From a bacterium (GTDB taxonomy: Bacteria > Patescibacteriota > Minisyncoccia > Phycocordibacterales > UBA2100): a stretch of DNA of 64,000 nt. Below are positions 317 through 21,728 of this stretch, in pieces; the first letter of the stretch is position 1; every line of letters starts with the position of its first letter. The translations under genes were made by a program, and so were the position numbers. The stretch lies in assembly GCA_016789445.1 (NCBI GenBank), contig JAEUQT010000001.1, positions 195,603 through 259,602 of the forward strand, given 5' to 3'. Under the pieces are notes generated by a model that saw only the letters and a list, made by a program, of their open reading frames with translations, made no database searches and had not been told where the DNA came from.

Positions 317-898
317 ATGCCTGAACGCATTCCGCCGCCGATTTTCACCGCCATTACCGTCGGCGAGATGACCGGAAAGACCGGGGAGATCTTCGACGTT
401 GTCATCGGACTCGACGAAGAGCGCGTCTCCCAACTCAAGAAATATTCGCTCGATATGAGCGATACTGACCTTCAAGAAAACACCTCGGATTATGCGCGCT
501 TCGGCGAAGGTTCGTATGAAGAGTGGTATGCGAAAGGCCGCACTCCGTTTGCACTCATCCACAAAGCAACAGGCATTCTTGCGGCGCTCATCTGGCTCGG
601 ACCGGAACCACTCGGAACAAAATCAATAAAGTACGGTGACACTACAAAGAAGGATGCTCCTCTCGGCGATTGGCACACGATCGCGTTCCGTGCGTACAAC
701 CCCTATCGCGGCCAAGGACTCATGAAAAACTTCGCACTTCAGGCGATTGAGATCTATACGAAGTATTTCCCCTCAGCGCGCATCTGGGCAGGCATCAATG
801 CGAAGAACGCGGCGAGCATCGCGCTTTCTGAGAAAATCGGATTGCATACAGAAGAGTCCGTCTCGGATGGGAACTGGACAGCGATGGTTTCCAGCTAG
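317..898 (+). CDS. GNAT family N-acetyltransferase
   Basis: 193-aa ORF. Acetyl-CoA binding motif YRGQGLMKNFALQAIE and C-terminal GINAKNAASIALSEKIGL are typical of GNAT proteins. Confidence 0.55.
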   Translation: MPERIPPPIFTAITVGEMTGKTGEIFDVVIGLDEERVSQLKKYSLDMSDTDLQENTSDYARFGEGSYEEWYAKGRTPFALIHKATGILAALIWLGPEPLGTKSIKYGDTTKKDAPLGDWHTIAFRAYNPYRGQGLMKNFALQAIEIYTKYFPSARIWAGINAKNAASIALSEKIGLHTEESVSDGNWTAMVSS

Positions 899-960
899 TC
901 TCCCCAGTACGTCTTCATACTCCATAAGGTTCCGAAATGGGGTCATGTATACTTTTGGAC

Positions 961-2244
961 ATGCGGGTGCGCAGAAATAACGCTCTCTTTCTCATTTTCA
1001 TCGCGGTTTGTTCCGCAACACTTTCTGCACCTTTCGTCACTGAGGCTGCATGTGAACGACCGGGCTCCGTCGAGATAACCGATGCGACACGAGCAACCGC
1101 ACGCAGCGCCGGAATTCCGGACTTCTGTACGCACTGGATTCCCGGTCAGCCATACGTGGGCCAGGAGGTCGGCGAAGCGAAGACGTACCTTAAGAACGTC
1201 CTCTGTCGTCCCGATGGAGATAACTACGGCGGCTATGGACCGGATGGCACCGTCGACAACCTGAATCCTGATTTCGCAAAATGCGCCGCAAAATTCATCC
1301 GCGATTATAGCTCCCAATTACAGGGCGCAATGCCGCTGCGCTCAGGCGGCAGTAATCCAATCTGCTTGAAAGAAGGGGCGCGCACGGTCCAGAAACAGAA
1401 TGAGTATGCGAACCGCGGGGTCATCGCCTGCAAACAAGGGGCCCGGTGCGAGCACCCGAGCGGCATCGCGATCGATATCAACACTTCGTCACAGCAGAAT
1501 TACGCACGCCTGCATGCGGCGGCGTGCGCATACGGACTCGTCTTCTACATGGGAATGAACGATGAGTATCATTTCGTACCTGCATCTAACCGCGTCGGAA
1601 AGAGAGACCGCATCACCTGCCCGCCGGCTGCAGCGCAGGTGAATTGTGCGGATCCGAATTTCCGCCCCCAGACCGATCTGACGCCAGCGAGCTCTCCTAC
1701 GGCAACGTTCGCGCAGACAGTACGCAATTGGCTCTCGCCGCAACAGCAAGTGACAGCAGCCCCTTCGCAGCCAGCACTACCATCACAGCCAGTGTCGACT
1801 TCCCAGAATCCACTCGATTCATTCAACCCCATACCAAGCACGCCGGTCACCGTACCGACGACGACCGCGACCACCTCGAACGCGGCAGCTGATCGATTGG
1901 AGGAGCTTGCGTTCGGAGGGCAATCGACAACATCGACCGCCACCGCGACCTCGGTCCCGCTCGTCGTCTCCGGCTCGGATGCAGCGGTTCTTACCGGAAC
2001 CCAACAGGCCTCGACGACATCCGTCACCACACAAGGGATGATCTCCCCCTCTCAGACGACCTTCACCTCAGGCGATCTTGCCTGGCAAGATGAGACCGTA
2101 TCGAGCAATCCGGTCAGTGGAGTTCAAGCGATCATCATTACGATCCGCGCCGCACTCAACCGCATCGGGCAGTACCTCGTACCGTTCGGCACCCGGAACG
2201 CTACGTCTGCAGAGGGTCACGAGACCGTCCAGATAGTCGAATAA
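961..2244 (+). CDS. secreted peptidase M15 (VanY-like D-Ala-D-Ala carboxypeptidase) with long Thr/Ser/Pro-rich C-terminal tail
   Basis: Signal peptide MRVRRNNALFLIFIAVCSATLSA. Zn-peptidase motifs EHPSGIAIDIN and EYHF correspond to the HxxGxAxD ... E-W/Y-H pattern. Residues ~250-400 are low-complexity T/S/P/A-rich. Confidence 0.6.
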   Translation: MRVRRNNALFLIFIAVCSATLSAPFVTEAACERPGSVEITDATRATARSAGIPDFCTHWIPGQPYVGQEVGEAKTYLKNVLCRPDGDNYGGYGPDGTVDNLNPDFAKCAAKFIRDYSSQLQGAMPLRSGGSNPICLKEGARTVQKQNEYANRGVIACKQGARCEHPSGIAIDINTSSQQNYARLHAAACAYGLVFYMGMNDEYHFVPASNRVGKRDRITCPPAAAQVNCADPNFRPQTDLTPASSPTATFAQTVRNWLSPQQQVTAAPSQPALPSQPVSTSQNPLDSFNPIPSTPVTVPTTTATTSNAAADRLEELAFGGQSTTSTATATSVPLVVSGSDAAVLTGTQQASTTSVTTQGMISPSQTTFTSGDLAWQDETVSSNPVSGVQAIIITIRAALNRIGQYLVPFGTRNATSAEGHETVQIVE

Positions 2245-4900: not shown

Positions 4901-5584
4901 TTAGAGGATCATCTCGGCACCTTTACCTGTAGCGCCCCATCCATCGTGGTTGTTGTGGACCATGTTCTTCTCCTTCACCTTCCCTACCATCTCGATAAGA
5001 CGCTCCACAAGCGCTTTCGGGTCGGAATCGAAGGCAATGAATTCATTCGGGCGATGCGCCGCCGTGATGACCTCACGGATGAAATCGTCGGTACGCCAAT
5101 CGCCTTCGAGGACGCCGATAGGACGGCGGTCTTCGAATGAGACCGAGAATTCGTTGAGCGTACCCACGCGGCCCGGGCCGATGATCATCGCGTCGGATGA
5201 GCGCACGAAGAGGAGGTCGCGTCCCGCATAGCCGAAGCCAGTGTAGATGACGACATCCATGAAGTCCGTCGGGAGCTGATAGACCTCGATGTGTTCCTTC
5301 TCGGTGGATGCAGGAGAAAGCCCGATGGAAAAACCGCATTCATCCTTTGCGCCCATTGCCGCATAGAGCGGGAATCCGGTCGTGGCCCCCGTCGTGATGA
5401 TGCCTCCCTGCTTTGCGATCTGCCTGCCGATCTCACGGGCTTTCTCAAGCGCCTGCAGACCGAACGGACCCGCATCAGCGGTACCGGAAACGCCGATTTT
5501 CACGACGCCGTATCCATTCGGAAGTCGGCAGAAGTTCTTCGGCGGCGTGACGTGATTCGGATGGATCACTTTAAGCCGTGCCAT
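4901..5584 (-). CDS. TIGR00725/LOG-like (SLOG) Rossmann-fold protein
   Basis: 227 aa; KIGVSGTADAG ... QGGIITTGATTGFPLYAAMGA ... VVIYTGFGYAGRDLLFVRSSDAMIIGPGRVGTLNE resembles the COG1611/TIGR00725 family. Confidence 0.5.
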   Translation of the reverse strand: MARLKVIHPNHVTPPKNFCRLPNGYGVVKIGVSGTADAGPFGLQALEKAREIGRQIAKQGGIITTGATTGFPLYAAMGAKDECGFSIGLSPASTEKEHIEVYQLPTDFMDVVIYTGFGYAGRDLLFVRSSDAMIIGPGRVGTLNEFSVSFEDRRPIGVLEGDWRTDDFIREVITAAHRPNEFIAFDSDPKALVERLIEMVGKVKEKNMVHNNHDGWGATGKGAEMIL

Positions 5585-5960
5585 GAGGAATTATTTTATC
5601 ACGCGACAGGAGATACTTACCCACAGCATAGCCGGTGATACCGCCAAGGACGTCCATGAGAAGGTCGAGCGAGGTATCGAACGCGAAATTCGCTTCACGC
5701 GGGATGCCGCCCCAAAGCTCGAAGAGTTCCCAGCCGACACTGACCGCGATGATGATAAGGAGGACCCGCATGAATGTGAGCTTCCGATGCACCGATGAGA
5801 ACAGCCACATCGCCGCGAGAGCGACCCACATCGCACCGCCGAAATGCATGAAGACATCCAGCCACGGGAAGAGCCAGTAGAGATAGAGCTTGAGCGCAAT
5901 GATGTGTATCGCACCGATGAGTGCGATCAGGAATGCTTGTATGAAAAAGATATGACGCAT
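5571..5960 (-). CDS. VanZ-like family membrane protein
   Basis: Taking the MRHIFF start at 5960 (the ORF-track TTG start is 5975). Has 3-4 TM segments. Motif WELFELWGGIPREANFAFDTSLDLLMDVLGGITG matches the VanZ E..Q/R/D/N..G..G signature. Confidence 0.45.
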   Translation of the reverse strand: MRHIFFIQAFLIALIGAIHIIALKLYLYWLFPWLDVFMHFGGAMWVALAAMWLFSSVHRKLTFMRVLLIIIAVSVGWELFELWGGIPREANFAFDTSLDLLMDVLGGITGYAVGKYLLSRDKIIPHGTA

Positions 5961-6276
5961 GAAAATCCGGTACAAAGAAACTCCGCGCTGCGGAGTGTCT
6001 TTGAGGCGGCAGGTACGGCAATCCTGGCTTTATAGTCCAGGTGGGAGCCCGCAGAACCACAACCACGGTCATGGACGATATGAGGCTTCCCTATTTTGTA
6101 CCAGCAGGTTTTAGTACCAGCCGCTGGAGTCAGTATATCACTTTCAGTTTTCTGAAGAAGCTCGGGGAAAATCCTTCCGATACTAGGCGCGGGATGTACG
6201 CATTTGGAGTCGTACTGTGATACGGCGACAAATGCGTACGGGACCCGCAACGACGTAGCGGAGGATTTTAGCGAGC

Positions 6277-6912
6277 TTATTCAAGAATGCCGTCAAGATT
6301 AACGTCGTAGAGGATCGCCTCGCTTACCAAGCGGTAGTTGAGCAATTCTCCCTCCGTAAACCAGATCGCGATCTCGCGGTTCGCGTCTTCGACGTTCTCG
6401 GAGCAATGGATGAGGTTGCGGACTGCACGATCATCGACTGCGGAGATGCCGTACGAATCGAGCGTAAGGTCGCCGCGGATGGTACCGACGTCAGAGGTAG
6501 CAGGCTCGGTATCGCCGGTCACCTTGCGTGCCACGACTGCTGCCTGATTTCCTTCCCAGACCATCATGACGACGGGACCCGACGTCATGAACTTTACGAG
6601 CTGGCGGATGATGTCTTTGCCGTACTCGATCGGCTCCTTGTTGACCGGAAGACCGGCCGCCTTCTTGTCTTCGGTGATCTTGGTCCCCTTCTTGAGGAAC
6701 CACGCATCGTCCTTGTTGTAGTGCTCCCAGAGCTTCTTCTCGTCGGCGATACCGAACTTGATGCCCACGAGCTTGAGGCCGGTGCGTTCGTAGCGCTTGG
6801 TGATCTCGCCGATGAGCGAACGCTGGACGCCGTCCGGCTTGATAATGACGAATGTGCGCTCCTTTTTCGGATGTGCAGGCATATGAGTGTGGTTATGGCA
6901 GGCGTCTACCAA
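6277..6912 (-). CDS. ndk: nucleoside diphosphate kinase (with ~30-aa internal insertion)
   Basis: ERTFVIIKPDGVQRSLIGEI ... SGPVVMMVWEGNQAAVVARKVTG ... IRGDLTLDSYG ... NLIHCSEN. The true start may be MPAHP at 6882. Confidence 0.85.
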   Translation of the reverse strand: MVDACHNHTHMPAHPKKERTFVIIKPDGVQRSLIGEITKRYERTGLKLVGIKFGIADEKKLWEHYNKDDAWFLKKGTKITEDKKAAGLPVNKEPIEYGKDIIRQLVKFMTSGPVVMMVWEGNQAAVVARKVTGDTEPATSDVGTIRGDLTLDSYGISAVDDRAVRNLIHCSENVEDANREIAIWFTEGELLNYRLVSEAILYDVNLDGILE

Positions 6913-6948
6913 GGAGGTATCCCGGGGATACGCCTGCCGAACGATTAT

Positions 6949-9723
6949 CTAATAGGTGGATGCGTCGGGAGACTGACCGAAGCGAGCACGTATCTCGGCT
7001 TCGATCCCCTCCCGGTCGCGACCGAACGTACGATACGAAAGTTCCTTGAGTGCGTCAACATGACCATGATTGAAGCGCGGAAGATCCGAGGTGCGGAGCG
7101 TAAACGGTCGCGCCGGCGTGCCGTTCACGAGAAGCGCCACCGATGCATGACGATTCTCCTGATTCTCAAGGTCATTGCGGGTGAAGACCGGATGGAACTG
7201 CTTCTCCAGGAATTCCGCGTCGGTGGTGCCGATGCGGAACGCGATCTTGGTCCCCACATTGCCGATGACCGCATCGCGGATCTCTTCAGGAAGCTGCGCG
7301 ATGAACTGGTGGGCGACGGTGAGCGAGAGCTTGTACTTACGCGCCTCGGAGAGGATGGTGGAAATGGATGGCGTCGCGAAGTTCTGGAATTCGTCGATAT
7401 AGAGATAGAAGGTCGGCAGCTCGCTACGGGTGTCTACGCGGGAGAATGCCGCCTGCAGGAACTTCGAGACCAGCACGAGTCCCAAGAGTGAGGCATTACG
7501 CTCCCCCAGACGGCCCTTTGATAAGTTCGCAAGGAAGATCTTCTTGTTGTCCATGATGTCGCGGAAATCGAATGCCGATTGCTGCTGCGCCACGATCGGG
7601 CGCATGATGTCGTTCGCGAGGAAGACATCGAATTTCGAGGTGATGTACGGCGCGATCTCCGGCAGCGCCGCATCACCCTGCGGACCTTCGGCGATCTTCT
7701 TCCAGAACTGGACGATAACCGGATTATTGCAGCGCGAAAGCTTGAGATCGCGGAATGACTTATCCGCGAACACACGCGGAATCTCCAGAAAGGTGGAACC
7801 GGTGTCCGGATCTTCGACGACGAGCTGCACTGCATTGCGGTAGTACTGCTCGAACATCGGACCGAACGCCTCAGGGACATCCGCATAGAGCTTGCGGAAG
7901 ATCTGGTACACCTCGTCGATGACGAACGTCTTCATCTCCGGTCGCGAGAGATCGTACTCGAGCATATTGAGTCCCATGGGGCGGTCGGAATGCGCCGGGT
8001 CGAAGTAGATCACATCCTCGATACGCTCGGGCGGGACCGCCGCAAGTACATCCTCGATGTCATTGCCATGCGGATCGATGAAGGCCACACCTTCCCCGTT
8101 GCGCATGTCCTGGATGATCATGTTCTTGATGAGACCGGTCTTACCGGTACCCGTCTGTCCGATGACGTAGCAGTGACGCAACCTATCCTGCGCACCGAAG
8201 CGGACTTCCCGCTCATCAGCACCGTAGCGGTTAAGACCAAGCTGGATACCATCCGCCGGCATCTCGACCGGTGCTGGCGCCTGTTTCGCGTGCGCTTTCT
8301 TCAATTCGCGCGACGTAGTGACACGCTCGGCAGTGAGATGGACCATCGTGGAAAGCTCCGCGAGATTGAGCGGAATGGCGGTCGAATGATCGAACGTGCG
8401 GTAGGTGAATTCGCGCAGGAAAGCTGTCATGCCCCAGCTACCGACATGCTTGAAGTGGATGCGGTTCCCCTTCGGATCATCGAACTGGTTGAACGGCGCA
8501 ATGAGGTTCTTCAAGAGCTGTTCCGCTCGCGCCTCATCCGGTGCTGAAGTGACGAGACGGATGACCGTCGGTACGATACGGCTCTTGATCTTGCGGCCGA
8601 TGGCCTCGGTCGCCACCTGATCCCCCTGACGACGCATCTGCTGCCCCTCCGCCTTCGCTTTCGCCTCCTTGGAGGAGAACAGTTCGTCGACGACGTCGTG
8701 CACGAAATCACCGAAGACGGTCTCAGCGGTCTTCAATGCTTTCTCCAGCGGCTTTCCGTGTTCGAGTGCGCGCAAGATCTTCTTGTAGTGGTTGTTGTAC
8801 CGCTCTCCTTCGTTCGAGACGACAATCTGGAGTCCCGCACCTTCTCCATGCTTGGCGAGCTTCGCGAACGCCGCGAGAAGCACATTCATCGGATCATGCT
8901 CGAAGGATTCGTAGGTCTTCAGGGGGTATGCCGGATGCTCATGGAGCGTCGCGTACGCTGCGGCATGGTGGCCGTCGTAATTGAAGAGGTTATAATCGCC
9001 ACGTAACTCGCTGATGCGGGCATTCGGGAAGACCGAGGAGATGAGGCGCTCCGCCAATGCCTGCTTCTCACGCGGTACGGCCACGAAAATCGATGCCTCC
9101 TCAGTACCCTCCGGGACTGCTATTTCAATAGAAAAACCCTCATCAGCGCCGATGAGCGAGAGAAATCCCGAGTAAAGTTGCTCAGATGACGCTAAGAACT
9201 GTTCAAGCTTGTGCTGGCTTTTATCTTCGCTTTCCCCGTGGGATTGCGGATGTATCTCGAAGAGGACGAGGTGGAGGGCGCGCGCGATCCTCTCCGGCGG
9301 CTTCATCCCTTTCTGCGGCAAGCCCTCGGCGATATAGCGCACCAACATACGATGGAGATCGTCTTCGATGTGGGGGTTCTTGAGACGGGCCGCGACAGAG
9401 AGCGCATTGCGGATACCGTGCTCGGCGACGACCTTGAGAAGCCCGTCCATCTGTGCATCATGTGCTTCCGGCTGGAGATCAAGCGCGATGCGGAGCGTCT
9501 CGTGTTCGGGAAGCACCGTCGCTTCGTGGAGGACCGCCTTCGCCGGAGCGACGCCGTATTCGGCCACTTCACGCTTCGCGATACGCTCTTTCTCGAACGC
9601 GTTTCCCTCTACTTCGAGCTCACGCTCTTTCTCGGCGACACGCTCGCGCAGGAATGCGAGCTCCTCTTCGGGAGATTTGAATGCCGTCGCAGGCCTGAAG
9701 CGCTCCCCTGTGCGCGGTTGCAT
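6949..9723 (-). CDS. large P-loop ATPase, VirD4/TraG/TraD (type IV coupling protein, DUF87-like) family
   Basis: 924 aa. Walker A GQTGTGKTGLIKNMI, Walker B FYLYIDEFQNF, and a downstream LSLTVAHQFIAQL motif typical of T4SS coupling-protein ATPases. The ~400-aa N-terminal region is unassigned. Confidence 0.55.
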   Translation of the reverse strand: MQPRTGERFRPATAFKSPEEELAFLRERVAEKERELEVEGNAFEKERIAKREVAEYGVAPAKAVLHEATVLPEHETLRIALDLQPEAHDAQMDGLLKVVAEHGIRNALSVAARLKNPHIEDDLHRMLVRYIAEGLPQKGMKPPERIARALHLVLFEIHPQSHGESEDKSQHKLEQFLASSEQLYSGFLSLIGADEGFSIEIAVPEGTEEASIFVAVPREKQALAERLISSVFPNARISELRGDYNLFNYDGHHAAAYATLHEHPAYPLKTYESFEHDPMNVLLAAFAKLAKHGEGAGLQIVVSNEGERYNNHYKKILRALEHGKPLEKALKTAETVFGDFVHDVVDELFSSKEAKAKAEGQQMRRQGDQVATEAIGRKIKSRIVPTVIRLVTSAPDEARAEQLLKNLIAPFNQFDDPKGNRIHFKHVGSWGMTAFLREFTYRTFDHSTAIPLNLAELSTMVHLTAERVTTSRELKKAHAKQAPAPVEMPADGIQLGLNRYGADEREVRFGAQDRLRHCYVIGQTGTGKTGLIKNMIIQDMRNGEGVAFIDPHGNDIEDVLAAVPPERIEDVIYFDPAHSDRPMGLNMLEYDLSRPEMKTFVIDEVYQIFRKLYADVPEAFGPMFEQYYRNAVQLVVEDPDTGSTFLEIPRVFADKSFRDLKLSRCNNPVIVQFWKKIAEGPQGDAALPEIAPYITSKFDVFLANDIMRPIVAQQQSAFDFRDIMDNKKIFLANLSKGRLGERNASLLGLVLVSKFLQAAFSRVDTRSELPTFYLYIDEFQNFATPSISTILSEARKYKLSLTVAHQFIAQLPEEIRDAVIGNVGTKIAFRIGTTDAEFLEKQFHPVFTRNDLENQENRHASVALLVNGTPARPFTLRTSDLPRFNHGHVDALKELSYRTFGRDREGIEAEIRARFGQSPDASTY

Positions 9724-11768: not shown

Positions 11769-12167
11769 TCATTTCGACTCGACTTTCCACCACTCTTCAA
11801 GAAAGTCGACTGTTAGAACATCTGGAAAGAGCAATCTTGTACCAATTAAGACCGCAGGCTCTGTCGTAGCATGTGTTCGCTCTGAGTCATCTACGACATG
11901 TGCACTTATACGTATCCACTGTCCTTTCCAGAATACTTCGCCATGCGATAGTTCTATTTCTCCGTTCCCGCTTGCGTAGGAGACAGGACGAAAAATTGTG
12001 GTTGGTTCGAAATTCAGTTCCCCGGCAAGTGTATCGCCAAGAAATAGATACCCGTCGAAAGCCGTGTCGATAATCGCTAACGCACGAACACCATTTCGCC
12101 ACTCCAGCATTGCCAAAGGGCGCTTTTTCGTATCGATGCGGCCTCTGATAAAGGAAGGGGTGGTCAT
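11769..12167 (-). CDS. retropepsin-like (clan AA) aspartic protease, copy A (active-site DTA variant)
   Basis: 132 aa from MTTPSF. ALAIIDTAFDGYLFLGDTLAGEL and VLIGTRLLFPDVLTVDF echo the retropepsin DTG and IIGRNLL motifs. Paralogous to 17640..18011. The ATG overlaps the upstream gene's stop as ATGA. Confidence 0.6.
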   Translation of the reverse strand: MTTPSFIRGRIDTKKRPLAMLEWRNGVRALAIIDTAFDGYLFLGDTLAGELNFEPTTIFRPVSYASGNGEIELSHGEVFWKGQWIRISAHVVDDSERTHATTEPAVLIGTRLLFPDVLTVDFLEEWWKVESK

Positions 12168-12412
12168 TTGCCACCCCCAATCTCGCGCATCCAACCTATA
12201 TCGCTCTGTCCGAATCGTCTTTGAAATTCAATCATCAGATCCTTCTCATTCTCACCGACCAAGTATTCACCATTGGTCGTGTTAATGACAACAAGCATCT
12301 CAGGTTTTAAGCCTTTCAATTTTTCCTGAATCTTACCGAAGATCTCTTCACCTTTGATTCGAGCTTGCTTTCGGATTTCACCGCGATTTTTCCACTTCTC
12401 TGCAGTAGACAT
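12164..12412 (-). CDS. small partner protein of retropepsin module, copy A
   Basis: 82 aa; EIRKQARIKGEEIFGKIQEKLKG ... LVVINTTNGEYLVGENE ... FQRRFGQSDIGWMREIG aligns with the 17401..17643 product. AGGAGG lies 5 nt upstream of the ATG. Confidence 0.55.
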   Translation of the reverse strand: MSTAEKWKNRGEIRKQARIKGEEIFGKIQEKLKGLKPEMLVVINTTNGEYLVGENEKDLMIEFQRRFGQSDIGWMREIGGGK

Positions 12413-12450
12413 GGTGCCTCCTGAAGTACATTACCTGTTAGGATTATGCC

Positions 12451-12486
12451 GCAAAAAAGAAAGGACTGCCATTGTTGGCAGTCCTT
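12451..12486 (-). terminator. intrinsic terminator after small secreted-protein gene
   Basis: Minus strand reads AGGACUGCC-AACAA-UGGCAGUCCU followed by UUCUUUUUUG. Confidence 0.6.
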
Positions 12487-12494
12487 ATGATCGG

Positions 12495-12728
12495 CTAGGT
12501 GCGGAATTCGCCGCGACAGACGACGGTGTACCTGGTCGTCGGAGACATTTTCCGCCAGATAGCGGCGGTCTGGTGCGCTTCGGTATACGGCATCCAGCCG
12601 ACACCCCCTTGCTCACCCGTCACCGAATCCTTGTAGAGGATCTGGCACTCTTGCTCCTTTGTGCCGCTCGCCATCAGCATGGCCACAAGAAGAATCGCTT
12701 TCACTTCTCTCTCCTTCTTCCCTAACAA
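12495..12728 (-). CDS. small secreted protein (hypothetical)
   Basis: 77-aa ORF with hydrophobic N-terminus KAILLVAMLMASG and two Cys. It lies between secY and the retropepsin module. Weak call. Confidence 0.35.
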   Translation of the reverse strand: MLGKKEREVKAILLVAMLMASGTKEQECQILYKDSVTGEQGGVGWMPYTEAHQTAAIWRKMSPTTRYTVVCRGEFRT

Positions 12729-12782
12729 AAAACCACTGAGATATATTATATCATCTCAGTGGCCTTTGTCAAACTACCTCTT

Positions 12783-14523: not shown

Positions 14524-15120
14524 TTAGTGTTTCTTTTCGATAGTCTTGAGCGCTTCGATAGCAGCGCGTGCGTTGTTGATGGAATTGTGGCTGCGGGAGA
14601 GGATCTTTGCGGTAACGTCGGTGACCCCTGCGAGCTCGAGGACCGCACGGACAGCGGAACCGGCGACGAGACCACGACCCGGAGATGGGCGGATCTCGAC
14701 GACGCTGGCTGCGTACTTCGCCTCGATGTTGTGCTTGATGGAGTTCGTCTTGGTGAGGTCCAGCGTGATCATGTTCTTCTTCGCGTGGCGGGTCGCCTTT
14801 TCGATCGCGAGCTGGGTGTCCATTGCCTTGCCGAGACCGACACCGACACGACCCTTCTTGTCGCCGATGACCATACAGACGGAGAAATTGAAGCGGCGAC
14901 CACCTGCCATGACGCGGGCGACGCGGCGGATGCCGAGCATCTTCTGAGCGAACTCGGAGCGCGGAGCGTCCCCTCGATCACGGCGCGGACCACGAGGGCC
15001 ACGGCCGCCGGGGCCACCACGACGATCCCCACCTGGGCGCGGACCACGGCCGCGGAAATCCTGGCGCGGAGCGTCTGCCGGAGTCTGCGTATCTGCCACC
15101 TGTGTCGTTTCGTTAGTCAT
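14524..15120 (-). CDS. rpsE: 30S ribosomal protein S5 (Arg/Gly/Pro-rich N-terminal extension)
   Basis: KMLGIRRVARVMAGGRRFNFSVCMVIGDKKGRVGVGLGKA ... canonical S5 core. The N-terminal RGRGPRPGGDRRGGPGG region is low-complexity. Confidence 0.9.
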   Translation of the reverse strand: MTNETTQVADTQTPADAPRQDFRGRGPRPGGDRRGGPGGRGPRGPRRDRGDAPRSEFAQKMLGIRRVARVMAGGRRFNFSVCMVIGDKKGRVGVGLGKAMDTQLAIEKATRHAKKNMITLDLTKTNSIKHNIEAKYAASVVEIRPSPGRGLVAGSAVRAVLELAGVTDVTAKILSRSHNSINNARAAIEALKTIEKKH

Positions 15121-15124
15121 AACA

Positions 15125-15472
15125 TTAGAAGTCGAGTCCTGCCTTACGCGCTGCATCAGCAAACGCCTTGATAGTGCCCTGATACTGGAAGCCGCCGCGA
15201 TCGAAGACGACCTTCTTCACGCCTGCCTTCTGTGCTGCTGCCGCGAGGGTCTCTGCTGCTGCTTCTGCCTTCTCGCGCGGGGTCTTGCCCTTTGCTTCGG
15301 AAGAAGAAACCGCCGCAAGCGTCTTTCCTGCGTTGTCGTCGATGATCTGTGCGACGACGCGCGTGTTCGACTTGAAGATCGAAAGGCGTGGGCGCTCTGC
15401 GCTGCCCATCACCTTCGCACGGACGCGTCGGTGACGTCGTTCTCGCTGCTGTGTTTTAGAAAGAGTCTGCAT
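15125..15472 (-). CDS. rplR: 50S ribosomal protein L18
   Basis: 115 aa; RERRHRRVRAKVMGSAERPRLSIFKSNTRVVAQIIDD ... VVFDRGGFQYQG. Confidence 0.9.
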   Translation of the reverse strand: MQTLSKTQQRERRHRRVRAKVMGSAERPRLSIFKSNTRVVAQIIDDNAGKTLAAVSSSEAKGKTPREKAEAAAETLAAAAQKAGVKKVVFDRGGFQYQGTIKAFADAARKAGLDF

Positions 15473-16026: not shown

Positions 16027-16422
16027 TTACCAGATTTCGAAGAGGGCTTCACCGCCGACCTTCTCCTTGCGTGCTTCAAGACCGGTCTTGATACCCTTCG
16101 GCGTCGAGAGGATGAGGTGACCGTGACCGTAGCGGACAGGGACGATTTCGCTCACCGAGCGGTAGAGGCGGCGGCCCGGCTTCGAGACGCGCTTCGCACC
16201 GTTGATGACCGGCTTGCCTGCTGCGTCGTACTTAAGCGTGATGTCGAGGGTCTTCTTGACCTTCTTACCTTTCTTCTCGATACCACCGACGAGGCCGATG
16301 GCCTTGAGCTTCTCGACGATCGCGAGCTTGTACATGGAAAACGGGACAGACACGGTGGTCTGCTTCACAGCGCCGGCATTCTGCAGGCGGTTGATGAGAT
16401 CTCCGACAGGGTCAGTAATCAT
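16027..16422 (-). CDS. rpsH: 30S ribosomal protein S8
   Basis: 131 aa; MITDPVGDLINRLQNA ... HGHLILSTPKGI. Confidence 0.95.
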   Translation of the reverse strand: MITDPVGDLINRLQNAGAVKQTTVSVPFSMYKLAIVEKLKAIGLVGGIEKKGKKVKKTLDITLKYDAAGKPVINGAKRVSKPGRRLYRSVSEIVPVRYGHGHLILSTPKGIKTGLEARKEKVGGEALFEIW

Positions 16423-16428
16423 ACGGAA

Positions 16429-16614
16429 TTACCAAGAGGACTTCTTAACGCCCGGGATGTTGCCCTCAAGCGCCTCCTCGCGGAAGCAGATGCGGCAGAG
16501 GTTGAAATCGCGCATGAAGCCACGCGGACGGCCGCACTTGAAGCAGCGGCGTACGGTACGCGAAGAGAACTTCGGCGTACGGTTAGCTTTCACGATCATC
16601 GATTTCTTGGCCAT
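16429..16614 (-). CDS. rpsZ: 30S ribosomal protein S14, type Z (Zn-ribbon)
   Basis: 61 aa; [46 protein letters not shown], with a C-x2-C ... C-x2-C pattern. Confidence 0.9.
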
Positions 16615-16800
16615 AGATAAAAGATTGGTTGTAAGCCTGAGGAGTGTTTCGAGGCCTGCACCCGGGCTTCCGCCGTGGGTTATGGACTCCCGATTCGTGG
16701 CCTAGATTCTGGCAGTTTCCTCAGGTTCCCCCTCGGACTTACTCAAACTCAGGCCCCCTACGAGGCCCGTGCATACTACCCCCTGAGGGGGCCTAAGTCA

Positions 16801-16834
16801 AATAAAAGAAAAAGCCGCGTTAAGGCACGCGGCG
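16801..16834 (-). terminator. intrinsic terminator after secreted-protein gene 16854..17246
   Basis: Minus strand reads GCCGCGU-GCCUUA-ACGCGGC followed by UUUUUCUUUUAUUUG. Confidence 0.55.
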
Positions 16835-16853
16835 AGCCAGTGTAGGGTGCGAA

Positions 16854-17246
16854 TTAGCACCAGTCGCGGTAGTGGGCCGAGATGAGGGTCCGTACGAGGG
16901 TCGGACTCTTGAACTCCCAGATCTGGACGACAAGAGCGTCGTTGTCCTGGTCGTGCTTCACCTCGGTGGAGATCTTCCGCGCGGTGCCGCCGGAAGCCAT
17001 GAAGCACGATTGGTCGTGCCGACGGCCATTGACGTAATTGACCGACTCGCGCGGACTGAAGCCCTCGGTCGCTTGATAGTACGCGACCGCGATCGCCGCT
17101 TCCATGCTGTTGCAGACAGGGCCGGAGATCGCGAACGAATCCGAACCATCGTTCGCCGCACGCATGGTGAAGCCGCAGACGCTCTGCGCGAACGCGCTCG
17201 TCGAAAGACACGCCGCGAGAGCCGCGCCCAACAGAAGACTTTTCAT
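16854..17246 (-). CDS. secreted Cys-containing hypothetical protein
   Basis: Signal peptide MKSLLLGAALAACLSTSAFAQ and six Cys. Co-inserted with retropepsin module B between rplE and rpsZ. Confidence 0.5.
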   Translation of the reverse strand: MKSLLLGAALAACLSTSAFAQSVCGFTMRAANDGSDSFAISGPVCNSMEAAIAVAYYQATEGFSPRESVNYVNGRRHDQSCFMASGGTARKISTEVKHDQDNDALVVQIWEFKSPTLVRTLISAHYRDWC

Positions 17247-17400
17247 CGAACATCCTCCAAAGAACAATCCCCTCGGGATCGAGAGGTGCGGTCAGTATAA
17301 GCGGGACTGAGCGACGCACTATTCCCTCGTGTGAATATGCATTGCCCAATCGATTGCGTGCGCGTATGGTGTATAGAGACTGGTCATTAAGGAGGTTCAC

Positions 17401-17643
17401 ATGAGCCAGAAAGGTGAAGAGATCCGGCAAAAGGGCGAGCGTATCTATCGACGCCTCAAGCCGAAGCTGGAACCGAAGCTCAACGGCAAGGTCATCATCA
17501 TCGACGTCACTACAGGCTTATACGTTCTGGGAGATGATATCTATGAGGCCGGCCCTGCGTTCAAGCACCTCTTCGGCAACAAGACTAAAGGATATGGGCG
17601 GAAAATCGGCCCCGATCCTTATACGCAACGGGTCGGCGCATGA
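17401..17643 (+). CDS. small partner protein of retropepsin module, copy B
   Basis: 80 aa; EIRQKGERIYRRLKPKLEPKLNGKVIIIDVTTGLYVLGDDIYE ... FGNKTKGYGRKIG. AAGGAGG lies 7 nt upstream of the ATG. Paralog of 12164..12412. Confidence 0.6.
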   Translation: MSQKGEEIRQKGERIYRRLKPKLEPKLNGKVIIIDVTTGLYVLGDDIYEAGPAFKHLFGNKTKGYGRKIGPDPYTQRVGA

Positions 17644-18011
17644 GACATGCATTCGATCCGATATTCTCGCGGCCGCTTATCATCATCGAATGCAATAAGC
17701 GGCCGCTTCGCTGCATCTTGGATACGGGCTACGCTGGCACTTTGTGGATGGGAAAGAGTATCGCCGACCGGTATGGGATTCTGACTGAAGAACCTGTTTA
17801 CTTCGCAAAAACCGCAAGCGGCGCCGACGCTGAATTCCAGCAAGGATATGCTCGCATCTTGATCGATCCCGTACTATTCGAAAACCTGCCGATCGATGTG
17901 TTTGAAGGCGCTCACGTAGAATACGCCCTGCTCGGCACGCGAGTATTACATAACTTCCGCGTAATCCTTGATTTCAAAGATGCCTTCACTGATCTGCAGT
18001 ATATCGATTAG
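17640..18011 (+). CDS. retropepsin-like (clan AA) aspartic protease, copy B (canonical DTG)
   Basis: 123 aa; LRCILDTGYAGTLWMG (D-T-G-A/Y) and ALLGTRVLHNFRVILDF (retropepsin IIGR-like). The ATG overlaps the upstream stop (ATGA). Confidence 0.65.
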   Translation: MRHAFDPIFSRPLIIIECNKRPLRCILDTGYAGTLWMGKSIADRYGILTEEPVYFAKTASGADAEFQQGYARILIDPVLFENLPIDVFEGAHVEYALLGTRVLHNFRVILDFKDAFTDLQYID

Positions 18012-18020
18012 AAAAATCAA

Positions 18021-18053
18021 AAGACCACTCTCGCGAGTGGTCTTTTCTTTCTT
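18021..18053. terminator. bidirectional terminator between retropepsin B and rplE
   Basis: AAGACCACUC-UCGC-GAGUGGUCUU flanked by an A-run upstream and UUUCUUUCUU downstream. The two genes are convergent. Confidence 0.7.
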
Positions 18054-18594
18054 ACGCTTTGAGCGGGAGGCCGATGTGTCGGAGGAAGGCTTCTGCTTCC
18101 TTCTTGGTCTTCGCGGTCGTCGTGATGGTGACTGCGAGGCCGAAGAGATCTTTCGCTTCTTCGTCTGCCGTTTCCGGGAAGACGGTGTGCTCCTTGAGGC
18201 CGATGGTGATGTTCCCCATCTCGTCGATAGCCTTCGCGTTGAGGCCGCGGAAGTCACGGACGCGCGGAAAGACGATGTTGTTGAGCTTATCGAGGAAGGA
18301 GTACATGCGAGCACCACGGAGCGTAACCATGTAGCCAGCGAGATCGCCGCGGCGGGTCTTGAAGGTCGCGATGGACTTGGTCGTCGAACGAGGAGCCGGC
18401 TGCTGACCGACGATCTTGGTGAGGCGATCGAGGATGAGCTCGCGCTTCTTCTTGTCGTGGACGGAGCCGACGCCGGTGGAGACGACGACCTTCTGGATGC
18501 GTGGAGCCTGCATCGCGCTGGTGTAGGAGAAATCTCCCTTCATCGCGGCGAATGCGCCCTGTGCCTTTTCCTTAACGGTGTGAGTTGTTGCCAT
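18052..18594 (-). CDS. rplE: 50S ribosomal protein L5
   Basis: 180 aa; QKVVVSTGVGSVHDKKKRELILDRL ... GYMVTLRGARMYSFLDKL ... GNITIGLKEH. Confidence 0.95.
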   Translation of the reverse strand: MATTHTVKEKAQGAFAAMKGDFSYTSAMQAPRIQKVVVSTGVGSVHDKKKRELILDRLTKIVGQQPAPRSTTKSIATFKTRRGDLAGYMVTLRGARMYSFLDKLNNIVFPRVRDFRGLNAKAIDEMGNITIGLKEHTVFPETADEEAKDLFGLAVTITTTAKTKKEAEAFLRHIGLPLKA

Positions 18595-21673: not shown

Positions 21674-21728
21674 AGTTGTGCGGGGCTACTGTAGCTGGAA
21701 TTTGGCTATAAGTCAAAATATTTTCGCA

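Follow-up and report, generated by a model that had tools for sequence, protein, structure and literature searches.

A probable S8-regulated transcription boundary and accessory-gene hotspot between the L5 and S14 genes of Patescibacteria

The order of ribosomal protein (r-protein) genes is considered almost invariable among bacteria and serves as a conservation marker. Two described systems are closest to the locus analysed here. The first is the spc operator of Escherichia coli, an mRNA hairpin that copies the S8-binding core of 16S helix 21 (595/596/644, 597-643, N641 and A642), with the S8 gene inside the controlled unit. Its core is conserved and its distal stem is free to vary, and sites of the E. 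coli type are reported to occur only in Gammaproteobacteria (PMC3616713). The second is the integration hotspot between core genes, examples of which are the defence-island hotspots of E. coli (PMC10121019) and the hypervariable lmo0443-0449 spot of Listeria (PMC5541211). In this study, a 64,000-nucleotide (nt) stretch of contig JAEUQT010000001.1 (the window) from an uncultured, ultra-small member of the Patescibacteria was analysed. The genes of L5 (rplE) and S14 (rpsZ), both on the minus strand, are separated in it by 1,437 bp (16615..18051, from the list of open reading frames (ORFs) and the sequence). The initial annotation of this DNA had reported the split and attributed it to a recent 1.4-kb insertion that supplied a new promoter for rpsZ. 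We confirmed the split and arrived at another explanation. We believe, with a probability of about 0.7, that the junction is an ancestral terminator/promoter boundary that serves as a hotspot for accessory genes, and that S8 probably exerts feedback control on the unit downstream of it. Both kinds of element, the S8-type ribosomal leader and the hotspot of chromosomal integration, are known; the setting is new, and the locus is not categorically new.

The r-protein cluster of the window lies on the minus strand, and its genes are tightly joined in the L4-L5 and S14-SecY segments. Read along the operon, the gap holds a terminator, an antisense retropepsin cassette (module B), a secreted-protein gene, a second terminator, a sigma70-type promoter and a folded leader (Table 1). 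The initial annotation had described module B as transcribed against the operon, the secreted-protein gene as followed by a terminator, and rpsZ and the genes after it as having their own promoter and a hairpin-rich leader, and all of this stood. A protein identical to the retropepsin was found in 13 independent contigs in which the arrangement recurs, so it is not an assembly artefact. A misassembly or chimera could be feared for DNA from the metagenome of an uncultured organism, but the same junctions exist in many independent assemblies of differing samples and sources (Logan, JGI, NCBI, ENA), and this explanation is hardly conceivable.

Relatives were collected by a one-genome-per-species scan. 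This gave 70 bacterial genomes labelled Patescibacteria, Paceibacterota, Kaiserbacteria or similar, and many of these taxon labels come from automated submissions. The gap statistics refer to the 52 relatives with rplE and rpsZ both on the contig. The L5-S14 distance ranged from 18 bp to 4.2 kb (median 1,025 bp), with an overestimate of up to about 75 nt where S14 is of the long form, and it was at least 90 bp in 50 of the 52. The classical adjacent rplE-rpsZ order existed only in the other two, which are the most distant relatives (about 50% L5 identity). A strict promoter match, TTGACN-(16-19)-TAnnnT, was present upstream of rpsZ in 45 of the 52. When the 12 closest relatives were aligned over the 230 nt before rpsZ, the -35 box marked the exact point at which cargo gave way to conserved sequence. 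All 12 had TTGACTT, TATATT or TAGTAT and the 17-nt spacer between them at the same distance to the leader. Some gaps, of 90-170 bp, held just a terminator and a promoter. Promoter and leader persist under differing cargo and where the gap is almost empty; a split junction with a promoter of its own is thus the ancestral state, and the cargo is secondary. We regard an ancestral L5|S14 boundary with a variable islet as very likely.

According to the insertion hypothesis, a mobile element recently split a contiguous rplE-rpsZ pair and brought the rpsZ promoter with it. This would agree with the accessory nature of the cargo, with the G+C content of module B (48-54%, against 57-66% in the r-protein genes) and with its presence at other loci in other genomes. 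Module B has also diverged much faster than its flanks: the protease has 72% nucleotide and 70% amino acid (aa) identity, whereas the ribosomal genes have 92-99.5% at the nucleotide level. However, the promoter and leader are conserved beside unrelated cargo and in near-empty gaps, and the promoter lies outside every indel observed. Module B is at the same site in genomes with about 92% (L073) and about 88% (L208) DNA identity, which speaks against a recent event, and the secreted-protein gene varies independently of it. A recent insertion is very improbable. The comparison of synteny proposed in the initial annotation thus had a divided outcome: genomes throughout the lineage share the split and a conventional promoter but not the cargo.

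The 106 ORFs in the gaps had almost no families in common, and none was common to the cargo of the window. At least five different cargos occurred among genomes whose S14 is 100% identical to that of the window. The Pfam families in the gaps included RelB, HicA, YafQ, ParE, CopG, Xre, Fic/DOC and methyltransferases, together with RVT_1 plus bAvd (a diversity-generating retroelement), HATPase_c_3 (a MORC-type ATPase) and PaaX_M (PaaX/Cas2-like). HEPN_AbiU2 was also found among the cargo in a look-up by the exact S14 protein. In L059, the gap (5475..8336) contained a reverse transcriptase (RVT_1) and a bAvd-like protein, the pair of a diversity-generating retroelement, in the overview scan. As in the described hotspots, the slot is fixed between core genes, and its gene content differs between close relatives and is rich in toxin-antitoxin and defence-type genes. 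What sets this slot apart is its position within the S10-spc-alpha cluster, normally inviolate, of a streamlined genome, and the small size of its islets, with 0-4 kb of cargo. Neither an integrase nor a recombinase family was detected by Pfam in 70 cargo ORFs, and the indel junction around the secreted-protein gene has only a 4-bp CGAG repeat; the mark of an integron or site-specific cassette system was not seen. Gain or loss of DNA between the terminator and the promoter presumably has no polar effects, and the genes on either side are very conserved; the slot would therefore have become a hotspot for self-contained cassettes.

In L215, a 285-aa ORF without a Pfam match lies between rplN (L14) and rplX (L24) (689..1546), and the rest matches L208. 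The cluster can therefore also be broken at other junctions. In a study of Patescibacteria, predicted genomic islands were enriched in translation genes (PMC12455944), in agreement with islets that sit within the ribosomal cluster. Programs that predict islands, and binning based on synteny, may be misled by the ribosomal clusters of such genomes. A whole streamlined lineage seems to have shifted the operon boundary to L5|S14, with the slot serving accessory genes, and the slot is a defined place to seek new toxin-antitoxin and defence genes in Patescibacteria. A bolder proposal is that the L5|S14 junction of Paceibacteria is a selected landing pad, an insulated slot within the genome's most conserved and most recombinogenic part, through which lineages exchange toxin-antitoxin, defence and diversity-generating cassettes, with the cassette and the leader as new classes. 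We consider it unlikely. If it were true, the retropepsin and its 80-aa partner would represent a new toxin-antitoxin-like or defence family, and the rpsZ leader would couple an S8 mimic to a second protein- or ligand-binding domain.

Table 1. Features of the L5|S14 gap, its flanking genes and the second islet of the window
Feature	Position	Strand	Description
rplE (L5)	18594..18052	-	Pfam Ribosomal_L5 and L5_C; last gene of the upstream unit
Bidirectional intrinsic terminator (predicted)	18019..18046	both	serves rplE (-) and the retropepsin cassette (+); 12-bp stem, flanking A/T runs, -18.9 kcal/mol
Module B retropepsin-like aspartic protease, 123 aa	17640..18011	+	PF13975
Module B partner gene, 80 aa	17401..17643	+	Shine-Dalgarno AAGGAGG at 17389..17395
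Candidate module B promoter, TTGCCC-17-TATGGT	17342..17370	+	sequence reading; conserved in L073 and L208
Orphan secreted/lipoprotein gene, 130 aa	17246..16854	-	signal peptide MKSLLLGAALAACLSTSAFA; Shine-Dalgarno GGAGGA
Presence/absence segment, about 446 bp	16834..17279		carries the secreted-protein gene; CGAG at both junctions
Intrinsic terminator after the secreted-protein gene (predicted)	16833..16814	-	-14.6 kcal/mol
Sigma70-type promoter of the rpsZ unit (predicted), TTGACT-17-TAGTAT	16801..16773	-	consensus scan
5'-terminal hairpin GCCUC-GUAG-GGGGC	16766..16753	-	nearly invariant; where transcription is predicted to begin
Hairpin with the core of the 16S helix-21 S8 site	16747..16707	-	comparison with the published core
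Long hairpin, P1-P4	16693..16649	-	RNAalifold; invariant internal loop 5'-RUA(A)/(U)GCA-3', GNRA tetraloop
Conserved CUCCU tract, then A/U-rich start region	16643..16639	-	leader alignment
rpsZ (S14, 61 aa, zinc type)	16614..16429	-	Pfam Ribosomal_S14; first gene of the downstream unit
rpsH (S8)	16422..16027	-	directly after rpsZ, second in the downstream unit
Downstream unit rpsZ-rpsH-rplF-rplR-rpsE-rplO-secY		-	driven by the predicted promoter 16801..16773
Second islet: terminator hairpin overlapping a promoter-like site	12772..12735	-	
Second islet: 77-aa ORF with signal peptide	12728..12495	-	
Module A partner, 82 aa	12412..12164	-	overlaps the retropepsin-like gene
Module A retropepsin-like gene, 141 aa	12194..11769	-	DTA motif

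The leader is about 155 nt long (about 16766 to 16615, minus strand) and ends at the rpsZ AUG, which has no Shine-Dalgarno sequence in the window. The initial annotation had placed it at 16620..16800; the leader exists, and the promoter at 16801..16773 precedes it. It folds better than shuffled sequences (z = -2.6). RNAalifold on the leaders gave a 5'-terminal hairpin and a long four-helix hairpin. A covariance model built from this structure had a single match per locus, always before rpsZ, in 23 genomes in total and nowhere else in the window. In the alignment of the 23 leaders, which was fitted to the covariance model (the structure itself was also obtained from an independent MAFFT alignment), 93.6% of the cells pair, and 12 of the 19 pairs show changes on both sides. 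The covariation score was 0.464 against 0.213 for shuffles, none of 500 of which reached it, and slid-register controls gave 0.167 at most. The 5'-terminal hairpin has 98.3% of its cells paired, shows one-sided variation only, and has an energy of -12.7 kcal/mol with its flanks. A survey of the promoters of this genome ruled out promoter-proximal hairpins as their general trait.

Rfam was searched for known r-protein leader motifs, as had been recommended. Within the window, no family reached its gathering score; E <= 10 brought up nothing relevant in 16400..18200, nor did E <= 0.1 in four relatives, and all that these scans gave were chance matches on terminator hairpins. Eckert and Weinberg gave 20 ribosomal-leader candidates, none of them for S14 or S8, and our literature search found no description of the L5|S14 split, the hotspot or the rpsZ leader. 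Judged by its predicted fold and covariation, the leader is a new structured RNA without an Rfam match.

Alignment is poor between the two modelled hairpins, since the middle part has been replaced in every lineage. This region contains the hairpin with the helix-21 core, and the earlier idea that an S8-type autoregulatory leader was worth seeking proved fruitful. The core of the S8 site consists of A595, the pairs A596-U644 and G597-C643, N641, the invariant A642 and the closing pair U598-A640 (PMC4176348). The window hairpin reads G-UAAGU-[CC GA GGG]GGAA[CCU GA GG]-AAACU-GC at 16742..16712 and has this core of two helices around an asymmetric internal loop, and the preceding U-run pairs with GCCAGAA as its lower stem. 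With the E. coli numbering of the core, A595 falls on 16740, A596 on 16739, G597 on 16738 and U598 on 16737; on the 3' side, A640 falls on 16718, N641 on 16717 (an A), A642 on 16716, C643 on 16715 and U644 on 16714. The core was found in 18 of the 23 leaders, with U598-A640 and A642 invariant in all 18. Positions 596-644 and 597-643 switch jointly, with AAGU/A(N)ACU in 12 leaders and GAU/AUAUC in six, and the latter form keeps both pairs because of simultaneous double changes. The distal stems are 2-35 nt long and differ per lineage, even within the species (window versus L078), while the borders around this variable middle are constant: ...(U/C)AAGU-stem...stem-A(A/U/G)ACUG... A conserved core with a variable distal stem thus exists across the 18 leaders, as in the E. 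coli operator.

A strict S8 pattern was found in 11 of 61 leaders, one of which looked spurious on inspection; shuffled sequences would give 0.35 matches. A relaxed pattern had a single match in the 64-kb window, both strands taken together, and it lay inside the rpsZ leader. The S8 protein of the window retains the RNA-contact motifs KPGRRLY, LSTPKG and GGE by inspection. The form AAGU/AAACU of the window, with A at 641, is presumably the Bacillus-type 16S core. Two leaders (L002, L006) have AUACU, as E. coli does. Natural variation at 595/596/644 is known from the S8 site of T. thermophilus (PMC4176348). In contrast to 16S helix 21, the leader stems are short, with tandem G.A in the window, and there is no three-way junction.

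More distant relatives carry other types of leader, as found by eye and with simple scripts. Four of them (L010, L023, L028, L044) have in common a different structured leader, about 140 nt upstream of rpsZ, and rpsZ starts with GTG or ATG in these genomes. An AAGU/AUACU or ACGU/AUACG core lies 19-23 nt before the rpsZ start in L010, L023 and L028, and by eye in L044. The core lies in the last leader hairpin and is perfect or nearly so, as in L023 with GGGGGU-AAGU-CACG...CGUG-AUACU-AUCCC. One variant of this sister leader has a C596-G644 pair, which is also found in Thermus. The most economical interpretation is that S8 feedback was installed in the 5' untranslated region of rpsZ at least twice, in different designs, as the predicted structures suggest. 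So far, S8 feedback is documented for Gammaproteobacteria; here it appears to have an independent origin at another position, and at least two unrelated leader designs would give two or three novel RNA families.

A third long leader type, with the conserved sequence GUAGCGAUAUUCGCAUACUCUCG ... GACGGAAAGCGAGUCUU ..., was seen about 200 nt upstream of rpsZ in L019, L024, L033, L040, L042, L046 and L060, without an Rfam match. A metagenome scan with a degenerate leader pattern gave mostly chance matches, with three real leaders among the 80 loci listed.

The mechanism we propose is as follows. The upstream unit (...L14-L24-L5) would stop at the intrinsic terminator, and the downstream unit (S14-S8-L6-L18-S5-L15-SecY) would start from its own sigma70-type promoter. 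The 5' untranslated region is predicted to fold as three hairpins, the middle one of which copies the helix-21 S8 site. Surplus S8 would most likely bind this hairpin and repress the unit, with the same logic as the spc operator of E. coli. The boundary of the S8-controlled unit in the Paceibacteria-type lineage is most economically placed at S14, and not at L14 or L5 as in E. coli. The predicted site also differs from the E. coli operator in lying in the rpsZ leader of a patescibacterial lineage, with rplE outside the unit, and no S8-like site was found at the rplE start in the window. In the window, it is set between two other conserved hairpins and ends about 98 nt before the rpsZ AUG, so it does not overlap a start codon.

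Several points weigh against this explanation as a whole. No recombinase, integrase, tRNA or attachment repeat that would explain how cargo enters was seen, in which the slot also differs from described hotspots, and repeats were not searched exhaustively. The rpsZ promoter and the terminators are consensus matches only. About 0.88 chance matches to the relaxed S8 pattern are expected per 64 kb, and the case for S8 is therefore carried by location and conservation. The distance of the window site from the AUG makes a steric block of initiation in the E. coli style inapplicable, the upper stem requires tandem G.A pairs, and the core is missing in five of the 23 leaders (L007, L008, L011, L029, L053). 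The most conserved element, the long hairpin, is not accounted for by S8.

A rival reading is that the likeness to the S8 site is fortuitous. The leader could instead serve mRNA stability or translation, or bind S14, L6, L18, S5 or L15. This would suit the leaders without a core, the remoteness of the site from the start codon, a best-conserved hairpin that has no S8-like core, and a 5'-terminal hairpin that resembles a stabiliser. On the other hand, in 18 leaders seven positions of the core agree with natural S8 sites or covary as they do there, while the distal stem has been replaced repeatedly, and an unrelated second leader type in sister genomes has the core beside the start codon. We consider a fortuitous likeness rather unlikely, and autoregulation of the downstream unit by S8 through the leader seems probable from the pattern of conservation.

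Other likenesses and functions of the leader hairpins were considered. An attenuator or terminator function was rejected for the U-run after the 5' hairpin, which is weak in the window and pairs with GCCAGAA below the S8-like hairpin. The long hairpin at 16693..16649 was rejected as the S8 site after it failed by hand in both orientations. Its likeness to 16S helices 18 and 27 and that of AACUGCCAG to the 3' end of 5S rRNA were judged coincidental or not checkable, as the window lacks the rRNA of the organism. The same holds for the 5' hairpin GCCUCGUAGGGGGC, which resembles the 5' strand of E. coli 16S helix 22, CUCGUAGAGGGGGG. Helix 22 adjoins helix 21 in the rRNA, and the likeness may be a coincidence or belong to a larger rRNA mimic.

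The cassette in the gap consists of two genes that overlap by 4 nt (ATGA). The protease scored 30.5 bits against PF13975 (gathering cut-off 28.2), with a DTG motif within ILDTGYAG (residues 26-33) and ALLGTRVL near the C-terminus, and is a retropepsin-like protein by this measure. Homologues (P0001-P0007) were found, and a PDB sequence search with the retropepsin gave nothing meaningful. It shares with APRc, RimB and Rlo of P. aeruginosa the single-lobe aspartic protease domain of about 120 aa with DTG. Unlike these, it has no signal peptide or membrane anchor evident from the sequence, and it is always paired with a partner of about 80 aa. The AlphaFold2 (AF2) model of the 80-aa partner had a mean pLDDT (predicted local distance difference test) of 84.9 and the order helix-strand-strand-helix-strand, without a fold match in the PDB or a family in Pfam, NCBIfam, PADLOC or PHROGs. 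A search with a hidden Markov model placed 322 cluster representatives in the partner family. Among metagenome proteins of 190-260 aa, P0023-P0035 have two or three tandem copies of the partner domain and neither a protease domain nor a Pfam family, so protease fusions were ruled out for them. The terminator after the protease is kept in L073, L078 and L208, and the candidate promoter of the cassette was not reported by the consensus scan.

A paralogue of the cassette, module A, is located just after secY with 25-31% identity (31% between the partners), has its own predicted extended -10 promoter and terminator, and is at the same position in L073. It belongs to a second islet (11769..12770, minus strand) directly after secY, whose layout in L073 is identical. 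Close homologues of the cassette occupy a third slot, murB-uvrA, in other genomes. In L220, an internal deletion in that slot removed the DTG region of the protease and left the small gene intact. Proteases of L221 and L222 that seemed truncated were intact by tblastn, and the deletion is real in L220 only.

The cassette resembles type II toxin-antitoxin systems in its two small overlapping genes with their own predicted promoter and terminator, its paralogues, its patchy occurrence at three genomic sites, its fast divergence, its slot shared with RelB, YafQ, ParE and HicA cassettes, and the L220 case, in which the protease active site was lost and the small gene kept. It differs from them in that neither protein belongs to a known toxin or antitoxin family by Pfam, NCBIfam, PADLOC and PHROGs, and the small protein has no match to a DNA-binding fold. 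Because it is compact, overlapping, self-expressed, multi-site and fast-evolving, and because its slot elsewhere holds toxin-antitoxin genes, the cassette can be read as toxin-antitoxin-like or selfish, and we offer this only tentatively. A tie to the ribosome, for example the processing of an r-protein as RimB does with S6, is suggested by the position of module B between L5 and S14 and of module A after secY, here and in L073. A retropepsin-like protease that acts in r-protein modification is reported in PMC11957791. But other genomes have close homologues at the murB-uvrA junction, relatives carry toxin-antitoxin and defence genes in the L5-S14 gap, and the cassette is antisense to the operon with its own predicted promoter and terminator. 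Its Pfam matches at E <= 0.1 were PF13975 and PF13650 only, and the family of RimB is not among them. Such a tie is improbable.

The secreted-protein gene was regarded in the initial annotation as part of one insert and as coding for a 6-Cys protein. The 130-aa precursor has five Cys, of which four remain after cleavage at AFA|Q and five if the LAAC lipobox is used; six are obtained only with an unsupported upstream TTG start. No Pfam family and no homologue beyond its own 90%-identity cluster was found. In alignments with the window, the segment of about 446 bp that carries the gene was absent in L078, L081 and L083 and present in L079. Among the places listed for the contigs with the identical retropepsin, three have the gene and three lack it, and the terminator at 16833..16814 is retained in the allele without it. 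The gene is a separate presence/absence polymorphism between strains of one species and not part of a single insert. In L208 (about 88% DNA identity), it has a premature TAG at codon 61.

Two further observations concern the rest of the cluster. The S5 gene (14524..15162, minus strand) can be read with an N-terminal extension rich in Arg, Gly and Pro, RGRGPRPGGDRRGGPGGRGPRGPRRDRG. Gene callers give S5 138, 199 or 211 aa in related contigs, and its true start is therefore uncertain. A promoter-like TTGACT-17-TACAGT (21688..21716, minus strand) is located in the 55-bp gap between rplB (L2) and rpsS (S19), about 10 nt before the S19 start, and suggests that the S10-type unit may contain an internal promoter whose leader is very short.

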